Source of the DNA: an uncultured Gammaproteobacteria bacterium
GTDB taxonomy: Bacteria > Patescibacteriota > Microgenomatia > Daviesbacterales > UBA10151
Length of the DNA: 5,342 bases
Direction of reading: 5' to 3'
Assembly (NCBI GenBank): GCA_964522265.1
Contig: CAZFVS010000076.1
Coordinates: 1-5,342, forward strand
The notes under the pieces are model-generated. The model had not been told where the DNA came from. It searched no databases and was given only the letters and a program-made list of their open reading frames with translations. Positions within the stretch are counted from its first letter, which is position 1. Each line of letters starts with the position of its first letter. Made by a program: the position numbers and the translations under genes. Positions 1-5,342 of this stretch are shown one piece after another.

Positions 1-1376
1 TTCTTCTGGCAAAAGATATTTTCAATTTCAGACTAAGTATAATAGCATTTTTTTTATTAGCTATTACCCCATGGCATCTTCAGTATTCAAGGCAGGCAGG
101 CATTGAATCAGGCATGCTGCTTACCTTTATTATTTTTGCAGTCTGGTTTTTTATAAAAGGACTTAAAAAATATACGTGGTTATTAATATCGGTTCTACTT
201 TTTTCTTTGTCAATCTATGTTTATGCAACGGCCCTAATATTTGTGGTAACTTTGAGTATTTGCCTTTTAACTCTTTTTTGGAAAGATATTAAAAAACAGG
301 GGGTTATAAAAATAACACCTCTGGTAATTTTATGTTTTGTAATATTAATTCCGTATATAAATTTATATTCTAGCGGTAAGGCCGGGCAAAGATTTTCTAC
401 GATTTCAATTTTTGGCGATAAAGATATTAATGATGAGATATTTTCAAGAAGAAACCAAGAGACAGTTCCTTTTTCGTCGATATTTCATAGCCGTTTTTTA
501 ACTTTTAGCCAGGAAATTGGAAAAAATTACTTGCGCTCTTTTTCGACAGAGTTTTTATTTGTGAACGGTGATCCTAATCTTCGGCAATCGGTTGGAGGAG
601 TGGGTGAGTTTTTTATTTTTGAACTGATTTTAATACTTTTGGGATTTTATGTGTTTTTTAAGAAAGGTTACAAAAAAGAAACCAAAATACTTCTTTTCTG
701 GTTGTTGATTGCTCCTATACCTTCAAGTCTGACAAAGGATGGTGGTTATCATGCTTCAAGATTGATGTTTATGTTAGCTCCCCTGATTTTATTTGCAGCT
801 CTGGGTTTAAATTATCTGACCGAACAGGTTAATAGCTTCAAGAAAATATTGTTGATTTTGATCACTGGTTTGGCTGTTTTAAATATAATAATTTATCTGC
901 ATAGGTATTATACAGAATGGCCGAAGGATAGTTTCAGATTTTGGCAAGGTGGGTACAAGGAAGCGATGAGCTATATTAAAACTGAGGATTTAAAATATTC
1001 AAGAATTTATTTTAACAACACATATGAACCTGCTTTGCCAAGATTTATGTTTTGGTATGCTTATGATCCTGTAAAATTCCAAAAGGTATTTCAAGGGTCG
1101 GCGACAGAAAAGGATATTGTGCCAGGATTTAATGGTTTTAAATTAGAAGATAAGTATTACTTTGGTATTGTCAATAATCTGATTGAGGATAAAGGATTTG
1201 CCCAATTAATGAAAGATAAAGAGTTATATTTGGTATCAGTAAGGGACGAAGTTGGTTCGGCTGATTGGGAATCTTCACCGCCGGTTCATTTGAATATATT
1301 AAAAAAAATATATAATCCAGTAAATAGGAAACCAATTCTTTTTATTGTTACAAAAAAAGATGTGAAAAATGACTAA
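1..1376 (+). CDS. Polytopic GT-C-type membrane glycosyltransferase (GT39/ArnT/PMT-like), 5'-partial (codon phase starts at nt 3); divergent paralogue of 2125..3798
   Basis: The frame is open from nt 3 to the TAA at 1374-1376. The 37 codons upstream of the track's Met (nt 114) read LLAKDIFNFRLSIIAFFLLAITPWHLQYSRQAGIESG. This aligns with residues ~118-140 of the downstream paralogue (FLLAISPWSIQLSRTAFEGGIG), so the true start lies off-window. The protein has many hydrophobic helices. Shared motifs with 2125..3798: FSTEFLFVNGDPN / FSPTFFFTGSRPDN, IAPIPSSLT / FAPIPAALT, GYKEA in both. A non-hydrophobic C-terminal domain of ~150 aa follows. Confidence 0.85.
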   Translation, partial: LLAKDIFNFRLSIIAFFLLAITPWHLQYSRQAGIESGMLLTFIIFAVWFFIKGLKKYTWLLISVLLFSLSIYVYATALIFVVTLSICLLTLFWKDIKKQGVIKITPLVILCFVILIPYINLYSSGKAGQRFSTISIFGDKDINDEIFSRRNQETVPFSSIFHSRFLTFSQEIGKNYLRSFSTEFLFVNGDPNLRQSVGGVGEFFIFELILILLGFYVFFKKGYKKETKILLFWLLIAPIPSSLTKDGGYHASRLMFMLAPLILFAALGLNYLTEQVNSFKKILLILITGLAVLNIIIYLHRYYTEWPKDSFRFWQGGYKEAMSYIKTEDLKYSRIYFNNTYEPALPRFMFWYAYDPVKFQKVFQGSATEKDIVPGFNGFKLEDKYYFGIVNNLIEDKGFAQLMKDKELYLVSVRDEVGSADWESSPPVHLNILKKIYNPVNRKPILFIVTKKDVKND

Positions 1377-2064
1377 ACTTACCTCTCTATCCGTATTTTT
1401 CCCTGCTTTTAATGAAGAAAAAAATTTACCCGTTGTTATTGGTCAGGTTTTGAATCTGATACCAAATATAAGCGAAAAATTTGAAATCATCGTTATAAAC
1501 GACGGATCAGTGGATGGTACAAAAGAAGTGGTAGAGAGAACTACCAGAAAAAATAAAAACGTAAGATTGGTAAACCATAAAAAAAACTTAGGGTATGGGG
1601 CTGCTTTAAAATCAGGTTTTTATAACAGTAAATACGACTATATTACCTATATGGATTCAGATGGTCAGTTTAATTTTTCACAAATAGAAAAATTAATTTC
1701 AAAAATTGAACAAGCGGATATAGTTGTAGGATTTAGAATTAAAAGGGCGGATAGATTGATACGGGTTTTAAACGGAAAGCTTTGGAATTTAATGGTCAGT
1801 TTTCTACTGGGAATTAATTTAAAAGATATTGATTGTGGATTTAAGTTAGTTAGAAAAGAGGTTATTGAAAAAATCCCCAGATTGGAATCAAATGGTGCAA
1901 CTATTTCAGCGGAACTTTTGGTTAAAGCAAAAAAAATGGGATTTAAAATAGAGCAGGTTGGCCTTATCCACGAGCCCCGAAAATTCGGCAATGCCACAGG
2001 AGGCAACCCTTCGCATATTTTTAGGGCATGCTATGACCTGATTAAATTGCTGCCTAAATTATAA
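1369..2064 (+). CDS. GT2-family (GT-A fold) polyprenyl-phosphate glycosyltransferase, DPM1/GtrB/ArnC-like, with no obvious transmembrane helix
   Basis: 231-aa ORF. GT2 signatures: LSVFFPAFNEE near the N-terminus, IIVINDGSVDGT, NLGYGAALKSG, a DxD motif MDSDGQ (D-S-D at nt 1654-1662), and DCGFK (nt 1831-1845). The ATG at 1369 overlaps the upstream stop by 8 nt (ATGACTAA). The sugar specificity cannot be read from the sequence. Confidence 0.85.
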   Translation: MTKLTSLSVFFPAFNEEKNLPVVIGQVLNLIPNISEKFEIIVINDGSVDGTKEVVERTTRKNKNVRLVNHKKNLGYGAALKSGFYNSKYDYITYMDSDGQFNFSQIEKLISKIEQADIVVGFRIKRADRLIRVLNGKLWNLMVSFLLGINLKDIDCGFKLVRKEVIEKIPRLESNGATISAELLVKAKKMGFKIEQVGLIHEPRKFGNATGGNPSHIFRACYDLIKLLPKL

Positions 2065-2124: not shown

Positions 2125-3798
2125 ATGAAAAGACTGCTTTTTGGAATAATCATTGTGGGGTTTTTATTAAGAGTTATTTGGCTGGATCAGTTTCCGGTTG
2201 GTTTTACAGGTGATGAAGCGCAGCAGGAATACAGCGCTTACTCTATCTTAAAAACAGGCAGGGATGAATGGGGGCAATTTTTGCCACTCTTCCCAAGAGG
2301 TTTTGGGGACTATAAACCGCCACTTTATACATATCTTTCTATCCCTTCAGTTGCAATTTTTGATCTTAATGAATTTGCCGTCAGATTCCCCGCTGCATTA
2401 CTGGGGACTTTAACAATACTGGTAGCCTATTTTTTAGGAAAAGAATTATTCAGTAGAAATGTAGGTTTTTGGTCTGCATTTCTTTTGGCTATTTCTCCAT
2501 GGAGCATACAATTATCCAGAACTGCATTTGAAGGGGGTATAGGAATACCGATATTTGGTTTAGGTTTGTTATTTTACTTATGGAGTAAAAGACCTAACCG
2601 TCTCGGATCTAAAAGAAACCAACTTTTTCTAATCTTATCATTTTTGGTCTTCGGATTTAATCTTTATTCCTATCATTCATGGAGACTGTTTATGATAATA
2701 TTTTTACCGGTAATTATAATAATTGAGTATCTAAAAAACAAAAAATGGAAAATACTGCTCTCCCCAATTTTAATATTTTCCCTGTTTCTTTTGCCTTTAG
2801 TTTTTAATGCAGCAACGGTTTTAAAAAGATCGAGTGATGTAAGTATATTCTCAGAAAAAAACATAAAAAATTATTTCGTTAATAAAGATACTTCGGACTT
2901 ACCGGAAAATATCGCGAGAATATTTGACAACAAAATAATATTTATAACAGACCAATTTTTGACCAATTACCTTTCTTATTTTTCACCAACGTTTTTTTTC
3001 ACCGGTTCCAGACCGGATAATTCGTACCTTAATTTTCCCGGCACACCTTTGATGTATTTTGTGGAAATAATATTTGTAGGTATTGGCATCTTGGGCTTGG
3101 TGAAAAATAAAGAGAAAAGTGCAAAATTAATTTATACATGCCTTATTTTCGCCCCGATTCCAGCTGCATTAACTGATGGTTTTAATGCACAGAGAGCCAC
3201 TACTTTTTTACCCCTGATGACAATTATATCTGCATATGGACTAAACTTAATTATTTCGAATACAGGTATTAAATTGTTTAAAAAATTTCAAAGTTTAATG
3301 AAATTTATTCCAATTTTTGTCCTTCTTGGTAGTACAATTTTATTTCTTTATAACTATATCTATAAATTACCCAAACATCCCGCTAGTAATTTACGGTATG
3401 GATACAAAGAAGCTTTTTTAAAAGCGATTAATTTGGAGGATCAATTTGACTCTATTGTATTTTCGAAAGAGTTTTCAATGCCGCAAATATTTATTGCATT
3501 TTATAAAAGAACAGACCCTTGGTATTTTCAAAACTCATCACAAGATTGGTTAAGGTATGAAAAAGCAAATAAAACTTATGTAGATCAATTGGAGAGCTAC
3601 AATCTAGGAAAATATGAAATAAAGGATATAGATTGGGAAAAAGAACTTAGAAGCGGTAAAAATGAGTTATTGGTAAGTTCTATCAATAACTTTCCAGAAA
3701 ACGTTAAAGCGATTTTTGATATTAAATCCCCCAAAAATGTTATTATTTATAGATTGGTTTCAACGAGTGAAAATCAACCCGCGGAAGTGCGAAAATGA
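2125..3798 (+). CDS. Polytopic GT-C-type membrane glycosyltransferase (GT39/ArnT/PMT-like), complete, 557 aa, with a C-terminal non-membrane domain
   Basis: The ORF is complete. The N-terminus MKRLLFGIIIVGFLLRVIWL forms TM1, followed directly by a loop-1 acidic pair FTGDEAQQ (D-E at nt 2212-2217). This resembles the catalytic acidic loop-1 motif of PMT/ArnT-type GT-C enzymes. KPPLYTY (PPL starts at nt 2317) precedes TM2, and ISPWSIQLSRTAFEG is also present. There are about 10 or more hydrophobic segments. The C-terminal ~140 aa are hydrophilic and carry GYKEA (nt 3400-3414). The TGA stop is at 3796-3798. Confidence 0.85.
   Translation: MKRLLFGIIIVGFLLRVIWLDQFPVGFTGDEAQQEYSAYSILKTGRDEWGQFLPLFPRGFGDYKPPLYTYLSIPSVAIFDLNEFAVRFPAALLGTLTILVAYFLGKELFSRNVGFWSAFLLAISPWSIQLSRTAFEGGIGIPIFGLGLLFYLWSKRPNRLGSKRNQLFLILSFLVFGFNLYSYHSWRLFMIIFLPVIIIIEYLKNKKWKILLSPILIFSLFLLPLVFNAATVLKRSSDVSIFSEKNIKNYFVNKDTSDLPENIARIFDNKIIFITDQFLTNYLSYFSPTFFFTGSRPDNSYLNFPGTPLMYFVEIIFVGIGILGLVKNKEKSAKLIYTCLIFAPIPAALTDGFNAQRATTFLPLMTIISAYGLNLIISNTGIKLFKKFQSLMKFIPIFVLLGSTILFLYNYIYKLPKHPASNLRYGYKEAFLKAINLEDQFDSIVFSKEFSMPQIFIAFYKRTDPWYFQNSSQDWLRYEKANKTYVDQLESYNLGKYEIKDIDWEKELRSGKNELLVSSINNFPENVKAIFDIKSPKNVIIYRLVSTSENQPAEVRK
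3783..3787 (+). promoter_or_regulatory. Weak Shine-Dalgarno-like GGAAG, 7 nt upstream of the fusion-ORF ATG and inside the end of the upstream CDS
   Basis: gcGGAAGtgcgaaaATG. It is only a partial match to GGAGG. The ATGs at 1369 and 2125 have no comparable purine-rich motif. Confidence 0.25.
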
Positions 3799-4520
3799 AA
3801 CAAATAAAACTATCAGTTATTATTCCGGCTTATAACGAAGCAGAAAATTTTAAAAGAGGGGTGTTAGACAGGATTAATAAATTCTTCAAAAAACAAAAAT
3901 ATTTGTGGGAGGTGATACTGGTTAATGACGGGTCTACGGATGCAACCTTCAAGTTATTAAAAAACTTCTCATTGAAAAATTCAGGATTTAGAGTTTTAGA
4001 TATACCTCACGGAGGTAAGGTGGCAGCTGTTACAGCCGGAATAAAAGATGCAAAAGGGGAGATTGTATTATTTACGGATTTTGACCAATCAACCCCGATT
4101 AGTGAGGTAAAAAAAGTTTTACAAAGTTTTAATAAAGGAGCGGATGTAGTAATTGGAGAAAGGTTAAGCAAGGATGTAAATAGAACCTTTTTCCAGCATA
4201 TCCGAAGTAAAATCTTTAACGCAGTTGCGCAATTGGTTTTGCTTCCCGGGATAAATGATACTCAATGCGGTTTTAAAGCATTTAAAAATGAAATAGGTAA
4301 AAAATTATTTAGTCAGCTGAAAGTTACCCAGCGTACGCAAAAGGGTGGTTATATGGGGGCTTTTGATGTTGAAATTCTTTATTTAGCCAGGAAACAAGGA
4401 TATAGAATCATCCCCATTCCGGTTTCATGGCAATATTTTGAATCAGGCAGGCTTTCTCTAATGGAACCTATAAAGATGTTCAGAGATATATTCTTGGTGT
4501 TTTTTACGAGCCTTCTGGGT
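3795..4520 (+). other. GT2 (GT-A fold) catalytic domain of the fusion ORF (approx. aa 1-242)
   Basis: Contains the DxD motif and the DTQCGFK signature described above. It ends in a hydrophobic/amphipathic stretch, EPIKMFRDIFLVFFTSLLGRY, which resembles the membrane-interface helices of GtrB/DPMS-type enzymes. The boundary was estimated by eye. Confidence 0.65.
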
Positions 4521-5342
4521 AGGTATAACATAGCTTGGTTTAAAGAAAATAATACCGGTTTTAGATATCATTTTGTTGCAATTTTTATTCTGCTGCTCCT
4601 AACCATTCCTACGTTAATTGGTACTATACAACCCGGATATTTCAGAATGCATGATGATTTGCAGGCTATGCGCCAATTAATTATGGATAAATGTTTCAAG
4701 GATCTGCAAATTCCCTGCCGTTGGTCCCAGGATTTAGGTTATGGTTTTGGTTATCCCCTTTTTAACTTTTATCCCCCCCTTCCGTATTATTTTGGACAGA
4801 TTGTTCATTGGGTTGGGTTTTCTTTTACTGATACCTTTAAAGTATTGGTGGTGTTGAATTTTATCGTTACAGGATTAACCATGTATTTGTTGGCTCAAAC
4901 CTTTTGGGGTAGATGGGGAGGACTTATTTCAGCTTTATTTTATGTTTATGCTCCTTACCATGCTGTTGATGTTTATGTCAGGGCAGCGATAAATGAAGCT
5001 TGGGCGCTTGCCTGGTTTCCCGTTATATTTTGGTCTTCATATAAATTGGTTATTACCAAGAAATGGTTTTATGTTCCAATTCTTGCACTATCAGCCGCTT
5101 TTTTAATGTTATCGCATAACCCGATGCTGATGATTTTTGCACCATTGTCAATAATTTGGGCAATTTATTGGTTGGTTGTGACAAGAGAATTTAAGGTTGT
5201 TTTTAAATTGGCTGTTGGAGGAATTTGGGCTTTGGGTTTGGCTGCTTTTTTTACTCTTCCGGTCATATTTGAGCAAAAATATGCCCATGTTGAAACTTTA
5301 GTAATAGGTTACTTTAATTATCTGGCTCATTTTGCCAATATA
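3795..5342 (+). CDS. Fusion protein, 3'-partial: N-terminal GT2 polyprenyl-phosphate glycosyltransferase (ALG5/DPM1-like) joined in frame to a polytopic GT-C-like membrane domain. NOT in the supplied ORF track (no stop before the window end)
   Basis: The ATG at 3795 overlaps the upstream TGA (ATGA). I translated codon by codon to nt 5342 and found 516 sense codons with no stop. N-terminal part: MKQIKLSVIIPAYNEAENF, EVILVNDGSTDAT, HGGKVAAVTAGI, DxD motif FTDFDQS (D-F-D at nt 4077-4085), INDTQCGFKAF (nt 4257-4277), FDVEILYLARKQGYRI. C-terminal part: YHFVAIFILLLLTIPTLIGTI (TM, from nt 4566), MHDDLQ (nt 4647-4664, with HDD at nt 4650-4658), GYGFGYPLFNFYPPLPYYF, then at least 5 more hydrophobic helices up to the window edge. 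Confidence 0.8.
   Translation, partial: MKQIKLSVIIPAYNEAENFKRGVLDRINKFFKKQKYLWEVILVNDGSTDATFKLLKNFSLKNSGFRVLDIPHGGKVAAVTAGIKDAKGEIVLFTDFDQSTPISEVKKVLQSFNKGADVVIGERLSKDVNRTFFQHIRSKIFNAVAQLVLLPGINDTQCGFKAFKNEIGKKLFSQLKVTQRTQKGGYMGAFDVEILYLARKQGYRIIPIPVSWQYFESGRLSLMEPIKMFRDIFLVFFTSLLGRYNIAWFKENNTGFRYHFVAIFILLLLTIPTLIGTIQPGYFRMHDDLQAMRQLIMDKCFKDLQIPCRWSQDLGYGFGYPLFNFYPPLPYYFGQIVHWVGFSFTDTFKVLVVLNFIVTGLTMYLLAQTFWGRWGGLISALFYVYAPYHAVDVYVRAAINEAWALAWFPVIFWSSYKLVITKKWFYVPILALSAAFLMLSHNPMLMIFAPLSIIWAIYWLVVTREFKVVFKLAVGGIWALGLAAFFTLPVIFEQKYAHVETLVIGYFNYLAHFANI
4566..5342 (+). other. Polytopic membrane domain of the fusion ORF (aa ~258 to >516), GT-C-like; the exact family is unresolved. It may match the set mis-named 'PTPS-related membrane protein' or be YfhO-like
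   Basis: The element order matches the N-terminus of the GT39-like paralogue. TM1 then an acidic pair: HDD vs GDE. A PPL-aromatic motif before TM2: YPPLPYYF vs KPPLYTYL. An amphipathic TM pair: FKVLVVLNFIVTGLTMYLLAQTFW vs FAVRFPAALLGTLTILVAYFLGKELF. A Pro-aromatic...R..A..E motif: YAPYHAVDVYVRAAINE vs ISPWSIQLSRTAFEG. The family name is recalled from memory, not searched. Confidence 0.5.

Follow-up and report, generated by a model that had tools for sequence, protein, structure and literature searches.

Extracytoplasmic glycosylation works as a relay: a sugar is loaded onto a lipid carrier at the inner face of the membrane, the carrier is flipped, and the sugar is used outside by a glycosyltransferase of the GT-C fold. 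Which synthase serves which GT-C enzyme is usually guessed from operon structure; to our knowledge the physical contact between the two is largely unknown, and flipping is poorly understood in all domains of life. Familiar synthases carry C-terminal transmembrane helices of their own, two in GtrB and ArnC and four in the DPMS of Pyrococcus. The window analysed here is a stretch of 5,342 nucleotides (nt) of metagenomic DNA (contig CAZFVS010000076.1), at whose end lies a gene encoding a glycosyltransferase family 2 (GT2) domain joined in frame to a polytopic membrane domain. The original prediction, made from the letters of this DNA, read the gene as a fusion of the donor synthase with the GT-C transferase and set it against GtrB/GtrA/Gtr*, CsbB/GtcA/YfhO, ArnC/ArnT and DPM1/PMT as systems that keep the two enzymes apart; separate is also how synthase and GT-C enzyme are described for established systems (PMC8035078).

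The fused gene and its split counterparts

The fusion gene occupies 3795..5342 (all coordinates below refer to the + strand of the window), where translation gives 516 codons without a stop, running past the window end. The list of open reading frames (ORFs) ends at 3798 and lacks it only because the listing tool leaves out any ORF extending past the source; the frame pointed out in the original prediction is uninterrupted, the stretch at nt 4480-4600 included. We searched for homologues among 5.8 billion proteins and found about 37 full-length clusters of 792-842 amino acids (aa), with 92-100% query coverage and 53-83% identity, from NCBI, ENA, JGI and Logan assemblies. The closest homologue, P0001 (816 aa), is 83% identical to the window fragment over 100% of the fragment's length. 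It lies on two Logan contigs from different runs (L001 and L002), its sequence is 100% identical to that of a gene in a metagenome-assembled genome (MAG) of Candidatus Daviesbacteria (L009), and the window locus is syntenic with both L001 and L009. The fused gene is also present in Candidatus Blackburnbacteria, and is found in four GTDB species (L009-L012). The fusion recurs across many independent assemblies of Microgenomates bacteria, members of the candidate phyla radiation (CPR), and the window region is the first two-thirds of a natural single-chain fusion gene. These relatives place the source of the window, an uncultured bacterium of groundwater type, within the Microgenomates.

An objection to be met is that the single frame was created by an error in assembly or sequencing, out of two neighbouring genes that overlap; relatives do have split versions with overlapping stop and start, and a one-base error could merge genes so arranged. 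We hold this to be extremely improbable, since the same in-frame junction appears in all of the ~37 independent clusters, which come from independent projects and assemblers, and since the linker at the junction varies in length and sequence with the frame always kept. The P0001 gene was moreover recovered in both Logan runs and, as an identical protein, in the NCBI MAG. Finally, residues 228 to 285 of the window protein contain no Met at which a separate GT-C protein could start in this frame.

The original prediction knew of no characterised example of this architecture, and our searches of the full-text literature and of a dedicated review likewise turned up no description of a GT2-GT-C fusion. 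The architecture is not unique to the window: dozens of homologues are already public as unnamed or hypothetical proteins. It had also been suggested that a survey of orthologues would tell whether the fusion is conserved or split, and the survey returned both, the ~37 fused clusters and split counterparts. Stand-alone GT-C homologues of ~550-600 aa far outnumber the fused forms, which make up ~5 of the best 150 representatives at 50% identity; the fused state is a minority within its family.

The split counterparts retain both halves as neighbours. At L005 and L006 a GT2 of 251 aa is encoded just ahead of the stand-alone GT-C gene, with an 11-nt overlap of the two genes; this GT2 is 56% identical to window residues 1-244, the amphipathic helix that ends the fused GT2 module included. 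Inspection of ORFs showed a split with a 35-nt overlap at L013 and a split with an intervening gene at L022; at both loci the tblastn match covers residues 4-807 although the ORFs are split. Among the stand-alone loci (L014-L032), each one whose upstream flank is long enough has, 1.5-4 kb before the GT-C gene, a GT2 gene orthologous to the fused domain (38-55% identity), and the usual gene order is GT2, then a PMT_2 GT-C gene, then the PTPS_related-type GT-C gene that corresponds to the fused membrane domain. A Berkelbacteria locus has two more pairs of a GT2 gene with a gene for a polytopic membrane protein, one pair overlapping by 4 nt and the other 9 nt apart. These gene arrangements make the fused gene one side of a true fusion/fission pair; the other side is a conserved pair of genes coupled in translation, of which it is the covalent form. 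Because sister lineages have the two parts as separate genes, the fusion counts as 'Rosetta stone' evidence for a physical pairing of synthase and GT-C enzyme.

The two modules and their junction

By sequence and by predicted fold, aa 1-215 are a GT2 domain of the polyprenyl-phosphate glycosyltransferase type, closest to DPMS, GtrB and ArnC. The catalytic core (GT-A fold, PF00535, Pfam E = 4e-27) spans aa 7-171 (3813..4307). Both motifs named in the original prediction are in place. The DXD metal/nucleotide-sugar motif is D95-F96-D97 (4077..4085), which HMMER aligns with the DAD of DPMS (5mlz) and GtrB (5ekp). The sequence DTQCGFK at aa 155-161 (4257..4277), which holds the presumed catalytic Asp of DPM1/GtrB-type enzymes, aligns with 'ikDpvsGF' of DPMS, with D155 of DTQCGF paired with the Asp of 'Dpvsgf' in 5mlz. 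Across the fusions the consensus reads DFDQSTP at the DXD site and DxQCGFKAFK at the second motif.

The DPM1-like assignment of the original prediction agrees with the database matches, the best of which are all polyprenyl-phosphate glycosyltransferases. In a sequence search of the PDB the seven best matches of the GT2 domain were DPMS from Pyrococcus (5mlz), GtrB from Synechocystis (5ekp/9nye) and ArnC (9bhc/8vxh/9hwj), at E = 5e-15 to 4e-12, with the next match at E = 2e-8. With the AlphaFold model of full-length P0001 (mean predicted local distance difference test, pLDDT, 86.7; predicted template modelling score, pTM, 0.80), the 19 best Foldseek matches were again DPMS, GtrB and ArnC (E = 6e-12 to 1e-8, probability 1.0). 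The top NCBIfam matches were PgfS, ArnC and Dol-P-hexose transferase, all scoring far under the equivalog cut-offs, so the fused GT2 is better regarded as a member of the class than as an orthologue of any named enzyme.

The GT2 module has no transmembrane helices of its own: hydropathy gives no membrane helix before residue 256, and the split orthologue, which ends at residue 251, is likewise helix-free. The module ends in an amphipathic (interface) helix predicted at aa 224-240 (4464..4514; AlphaFold helix 224-240, Kyte-Doolittle maximum 1.1, under the level of a membrane helix), the EPxKMLRD motif of which is kept in all fusions and at the C-terminus of the split 251-aa GT2. Amphipathic juxtamembrane helices behind the catalytic domain are a feature of polyprenyl-phosphate glycosyltransferases in general. 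In lacking membrane helices the fused GT2 resembles the helix-less subclass of synthases (Ppm1 D2, GacI, WpsA). A hydrophobic stretch at aa 232-242 was considered as a membrane helix, which would invert the topology of the GT-C domain, and was rejected; it has 11 residues and a hydropathy of 1.1, and it occurs in the soluble split GT2 as well.

A variable linker at aa 241-255 (4515..4559) separates the modules. In the junction alignment it is always in frame, and the shortest and longest fusions differ there by up to ~25 residues; residues 249-255 of P0001 (248-254 of the window protein) have pLDDT <50. Stand-alone homologues begin at this linker, 8-25 residues ahead of the shared first membrane helix of the GT-C module, which is aa 256-278 of the window protein (4560..4628; hydropathy 2.6, helix 257-279 in the P0001 model). 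After this conserved helix the alignment continues into GYFxMHDDLQ. The N-terminus that precedes the helix in stand-alone forms is Lys-rich and therefore indicates, as a prediction, that the GT-C module has its N-terminus inside. With that orientation the acidic motif that follows the helix would lie outside, and a cytoplasmic domain could be attached at the N-terminus without a change of topology.

This acidic motif, H286-D287-D288 (4650..4658), lies 8 residues past the first helix, in the predicted first extracytoplasmic loop, a position that fits the GT-C catalytic loop as described (PMC7801869, PMC5836110). D287 and D288 are invariant across 44 fused and stand-alone sequences, and an alignment of 23 stand-alone sequences shows full conservation of the first Asp and near-complete conservation of the second. 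Some 50 further positions of the GT-C domain are invariant in fused and stand-alone sequences alike.

The original prediction expected PF00535 at the N-terminus and a GT-C-clan family at the C-terminus, and this pair is what the Pfam scan gave. The C-terminal member is PF10131 (PTPS_related), matched by aa 323-491 (4761..5267) at 27.1 bits, just over the 26.4-bit cut-off, and the match spans only the first 169 of 621 profile positions. PF10131 belongs to the GT-C clan CL0111 and is listed as of 'function unknown' (PMC7801869). Relatives match it better, P0123 at 53 bits and P0121 at 104 bits, the latter also matching YfhO at 63.5 bits. The YfhO family (PF09586) is matched by neither the window fragment nor P0001, and by only some relatives (P0047, P0084, P0121).

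Hydropathy gives ~10 hydrophobic segments, in line with the 8-13 helices of GT-C enzymes, and the P0001 and P0038 models each contain a multi-helix bundle. Among the matches listed for the full-length P0001 model Foldseek gave GT2 structures only; for that reason the stand-alone homologue P0038 was modelled (pLDDT 84.7, pTM 0.88), so as to isolate the membrane domain. The top 33 PDB matches of this model are all GT-C enzymes (STT3, AglB, PglB, AftA, EmbA/B/C, AftD, AftB, Pmt4 and DPY19), at E = 1e-5 to 7e-2, with other folds appearing only at E > 0.1. Together with the invariant acidic motif in the first outer loop, these matches agree with the GT-C hallmarks noticed in the original prediction. 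Beyond the window end, the P0001 model continues with a beta-rich domain at ~660-781 and a last helix at 785-815; YfhO, too, has been described as carrying a large outer domain that separates its penultimate from its last membrane helix (PMC5836110). The membrane domain has a GT-C fold and belongs to the PTPS_related/YfhO neighbourhood, a group of which no solved structure is among the matches.

Proposed mechanism and neighbouring genes

We propose that the gene encodes, in a single chain, two consecutive enzymes of transmembrane glycosylation, and we give this reading, with the mechanism that follows, a probability of roughly 0.65. Lacking membrane helices itself, the GT2 domain would be held at the cytoplasmic face by the amphipathic helix and the GT-C membrane domain. 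There it would use a nucleotide sugar to glycosylate polyprenyl phosphate; a flippase encoded elsewhere would bring the lipid-linked sugar to the outer face, and the GT-C domain would pass it to an extracytoplasmic acceptor, either a protein or a cell-envelope polymer. We infer the use of a polyprenyl-(pyro)phosphate-linked donor at the outer face from the fold, the position of the acidic motif, the fusion and the gene neighbourhood. The two domains would thus be functionally coupled, the fusion hard-wiring a 1:1 complex of donor synthesis and donor use, and the split versions probably associate non-covalently. By analogy with Ppm1/Ppm2, GacI/GacJ and WpsA/WpsB, the fusion may also provide the anchoring and activation that helix-less synthases get from a separate partner. 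No new enzymatic principle is involved, because neighbouring, overlapping genes of one pathway often fuse in the course of evolution and the N-terminus of the GT-C domain is predicted to lie on the right side of the membrane for it.

The fusion gives the uncharacterised PTPS_related family a first functional context. It also supplies a single-chain target of ~93 kDa that models well, suited to cryo-electron microscopy and reconstitution and to working out how the inner and outer active sites are arranged.

Several observations weigh against the proposal. The PF10131 match of the window is marginal (27.1 against 26.4 bits) and P0001 scores 24.4. The P0038 model reaches solved GT-C structures with TM-scores of just ~0.4, and a PDB search with a membrane-domain sequence profile gave no match, even at E = 10. 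Five loci hold many more GT-C paralogues than GT2 genes (16 of 43 neighbours are PMT_2 GT-C genes and 2 are further PTPS_related genes, against 6 GT2 genes), so that more than one transferase may draw on the polyprenyl-phosphate-linked sugar (Pren-P-sugar). A search of these 43 neighbours, with 25 of the 60 families listed, gave no GtrA- or Wzx-type flippase within ~6 kb of the fused genes; this is weak evidence, since GtrA-type flippases are often encoded elsewhere (PMC8035078). The matches that suggest a heptose-type donor, described below, all score under the NCBIfam curated cut-offs. Lastly, the same GT-C domain is also found joined to a GT2 of a glycan-elongating type, and a fused GT2 is therefore in itself no proof of a donor-synthase role.

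This second, independent type of fusion is found in four of the 50%-identity representatives, P0123, P0131, P0134 and P0183, in which a GT-C domain 36-56% identical to that of the window is joined to a different GT2 subfamily. The GT2 of these proteins is at most 29% identical to the window GT2, or does not match it at all; it carries the motif YFMYYEDxDxC, has rhamnosyltransferase, EpsD and GlfT1 as its top family matches, and gave no DPMS, GtrB or ArnC match. Joining of this GT-C family to a cytoplasmic GT2 has thus taken place on two occasions or more, one of them with a partner of the glycan-elongating type.

Other combinations occur as well. Two Amesbacteria loci (L007:1-793 and L008:1-793) carry, 5 kb upstream of the stand-alone GT-C gene, a 738-743 aa fusion of GT2 with PMT_2 (PF00535 + PF13231), of which only the 3' end lies inside the fetched locus. 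Gene calls also give relatives of 1060-3329 aa with two or more GT-C modules per chain (P0121, P0125, P0166, P0237, P0150, P0143). Their architectures include PTPS_related with PMT_2, two PTPS_related modules, PTPS_related with a TMEM260-like module and TPR, and one chain with five matched stretches; the TMEM260-like module is O-mannosyltransferase-like. Judged from these sequences, covalent assembly of glycosylation modules seems to be a habit of these genomes, and the other fusion types mean that the GT-C domain may transfer an oligosaccharide rather than a single sugar.

Such a transfer is the core of a second explanation, in which the Pren-P-sugar would be a primer, extended by cytoplasmic glycosyltransferases on the monophosphate carrier, flipped by a Wzx-type protein and transferred en bloc by the GT-C domain. 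The AglJ...AglB pathway of Haloferax works in this way. A bacterial precedent is the lactococcal WpsA/WpsB...WpsJ system (PMC10821137). Oligosaccharyltransferases are the closest solved folds of the GT-C domain, and the fusion of that domain to a rhamnosyltransferase-like, elongating GT2 fits the idea. So do two loci with a separate GT-C gene: L005 has three more GT2 genes and one GT4 gene directly upstream of the pair, and at L007 a Wzx-type Polysacc_synt gene lies 0.6 kb downstream of the stand-alone GT-C gene and is followed by three more GT2 genes. However, the window, L001 and L009 hold only DPM1-type GT2 genes and GT-C paralogues, with no elongating glycosyltransferase or Wzx within ~6-10 kb; Foldseek TM-scores of ~0.4 cannot tell donor types apart; and the characterised relatives in the YfhO family move single sugars (PMC5836110, PMC12041528). 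We regard block transfer as possible but unlikely.

A third explanation would make the GT-C domain mainly a membrane anchor and activator of the synthase, as Lnt is in Ppm1 of M. tuberculosis, with the Pren-P-sugar used chiefly by the PMT_2-type paralogues. The excess of PMT_2 GT-C genes over GT2 genes in the five loci would suit such a division of labour, as would the arrangement in Amesbacteria, where the GT2 orthologue sits upstream of two different, consecutive GT-C genes, and Ppm1/Ppm2 is a precedent (PMC3460810). Two findings make it improbable in our judgement. The acidic motif and ~50 other residues are invariant in fused and stand-alone forms, hence the GT-C domain is under selection as an enzyme; and the fusion partner is always a GT-C domain of PTPS_related type rather than the commoner PMT_2, with the separate GT2+PMT_2 fusion at L007 as the one exception. 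In any case, a role in anchoring overlaps with the two-enzyme mechanism that we favour and does not exclude it.

As to the sugar, three different genomes have a heptose-nucleotide-like cassette near the fused or split genes (L001:11205-15276, L005:7751-11859, L012:8460-13401), with HddA kinase, GmhA isomerase, GmhB phosphatase, an HddC/ManC-like nucleotidyltransferase and an SDR epimerase as best matches. It lies directly 3' of the fused gene in L012 and of the split pair in L005, and because it adjoins both versions a heptose-type sugar is a candidate donor. We know of no lipid-linked heptose-derivative donor described so far. The most far-reaching possibility is that the single chain, perhaps as an oligomer, makes, translocates and uses its own lipid-linked sugar, a heptose derivative, without any GtrA- or Wzx-type flippase, the Pren-P-sugar being handed from the GT2 site along the membrane domain to the outer active site. 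We consider this very doubtful. Were it true, the fusion would be a defined protein on which the flipping of lipid-linked monosaccharides could be studied directly.

The window itself is AT-rich (GC 31-37%) and holds four closely packed genes, all on the + strand, with overlaps at 1369-1376 and 3795-3798. The first, 3..1376, is open from base 3 and truncated by the window start; the remaining C-terminal 457 aa belong to a PMT_2-like GT-C paralogue, which gave no match in the Pfam scan and aligns with residues 104-473 of the PMT_2 protein of 557 aa encoded further along (25% identity, E = 1e-24). The second, 1369..2064, encodes a 231-aa stand-alone GT2 without a membrane helix (PF00535 E = 1.5e-32) whose top NCBIfam matches are ArnC, PgfS and Dol-P-hexose transferase. 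It is just 26% identical to the fused GT2 domain and is a paralogue, not the partner that became fused. The third, 2125..3798, is that 557-aa PMT_2/PMT-type GT-C (PF13231 E = 2e-10, PF02366 E = 7.5e-8, STT3 E = 7.5e-5), and its TGA stop overlaps the ATG of the fusion gene at 3795 in the sequence ATGA. In L001 and L009-L013, too, genes are tightly chained through stops that overlap the next start (as ATGA, or by 8-35 nt). Translation may therefore be coupled from gene to gene throughout a long tandem run of GT-C paralogues.

Downstream of the fusion, beyond the reach of the window, the next genes of the L001 array encode a polytopic protein of 386 aa, a further PMT GT-C, two proteins similar to GFO_IDH_MocA-family oxidoreductases and two DUF218-like proteins; the heptose-type set comes after them. 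The gene for the 386-aa protein (L001:5269-6429; L002 and L009 have it too) and the fusion gene overlap at the latter's 3' end. The protein itself has no Pfam match; its 'ITPWFHYLTVARS' motif resembles the 'SPWSIQLSR' of the PMT_2 paralogues, and it could thus represent a short GT-C-like protein or else an accessory subunit. Long tandem GT-C arrays of this kind, for surface glycosylation, are seen here in small-genome CPR bacteria. Many of the MAG records with such a CPR-type array (L010-L013, L018-L020, L022, L024, L027, L029, L030) are titled 'uncultured Gammaproteobacteria bacterium'. These titles clash with the gene content and with the closest relatives (Daviesbacteria, Amesbacteria, Microgenomates) and are probably a placeholder or a mislabel.

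Comparison with known systems

The systems nearest in function are CsbB/GtcA/YfhO of B. subtilis, S. aureus and Listeria, PgfS/PgfM1 and GtrB/PgtC2 of streptococci, GtrB/GtrA/Gtr* and ArnC/ArnT. They use the same two enzyme classes, and those of the CsbB/PgfS/GtrB/ArnC type have the same order of action and of genes, with a GT-A Pren-P-sugar synthase first and a GT-C enzyme second. Relatives of the window membrane domain match both the YfhO and the PTPS_related models, and the large outer domain of YfhO is likewise present. The differences are that the characterised systems consist of two separate proteins (PMC8035078) where there is one chain here, and that GtrB, ArnC and CsbB have membrane helices of their own where the fused GT2 has none. 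GtrA is a component of GtrB/GtrA/Gtr*, and no GtrA-type gene was among the neighbours examined here. At the level of family, PF10131 and PF09586 (both CL0111) share the GT-C fold with the membrane domain, whose close relatives reach 104 bits for PF10131 and 63.5 bits for YfhO.

Helix-less synthases offer the other comparison. GacI/GacJ and WpsA/WpsB are alike in that a cytoplasmic GT-A synthase of a C55-P-sugar needs a small membrane partner, and natural GacJ-GacI fusions exist in Geobacter and Desulfuromonas (PMC10821137). The GacJ/WpsB-type partner, however, is small and non-catalytic, has three membrane helices and is fused N-terminally, whereas the partner here is a GT-C domain of ~560 aa and stands C-terminally. 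Ppm1 of M. tuberculosis (Rv2051c) is likewise a single chain made of a helix-less GT2 Pren-P-sugar synthase and a polytopic membrane enzyme; there too the parts are adjacent separate genes in related species, and anchoring and activation of the synthase are the role proposed for the membrane part (PMC3460810). Ppm1 differs in that its membrane domain is N-terminal, reversing the order seen here, and in that its partner is the apolipoprotein N-acyltransferase Lnt, which is not a GT-C enzyme and does not consume the lipid-linked sugar.

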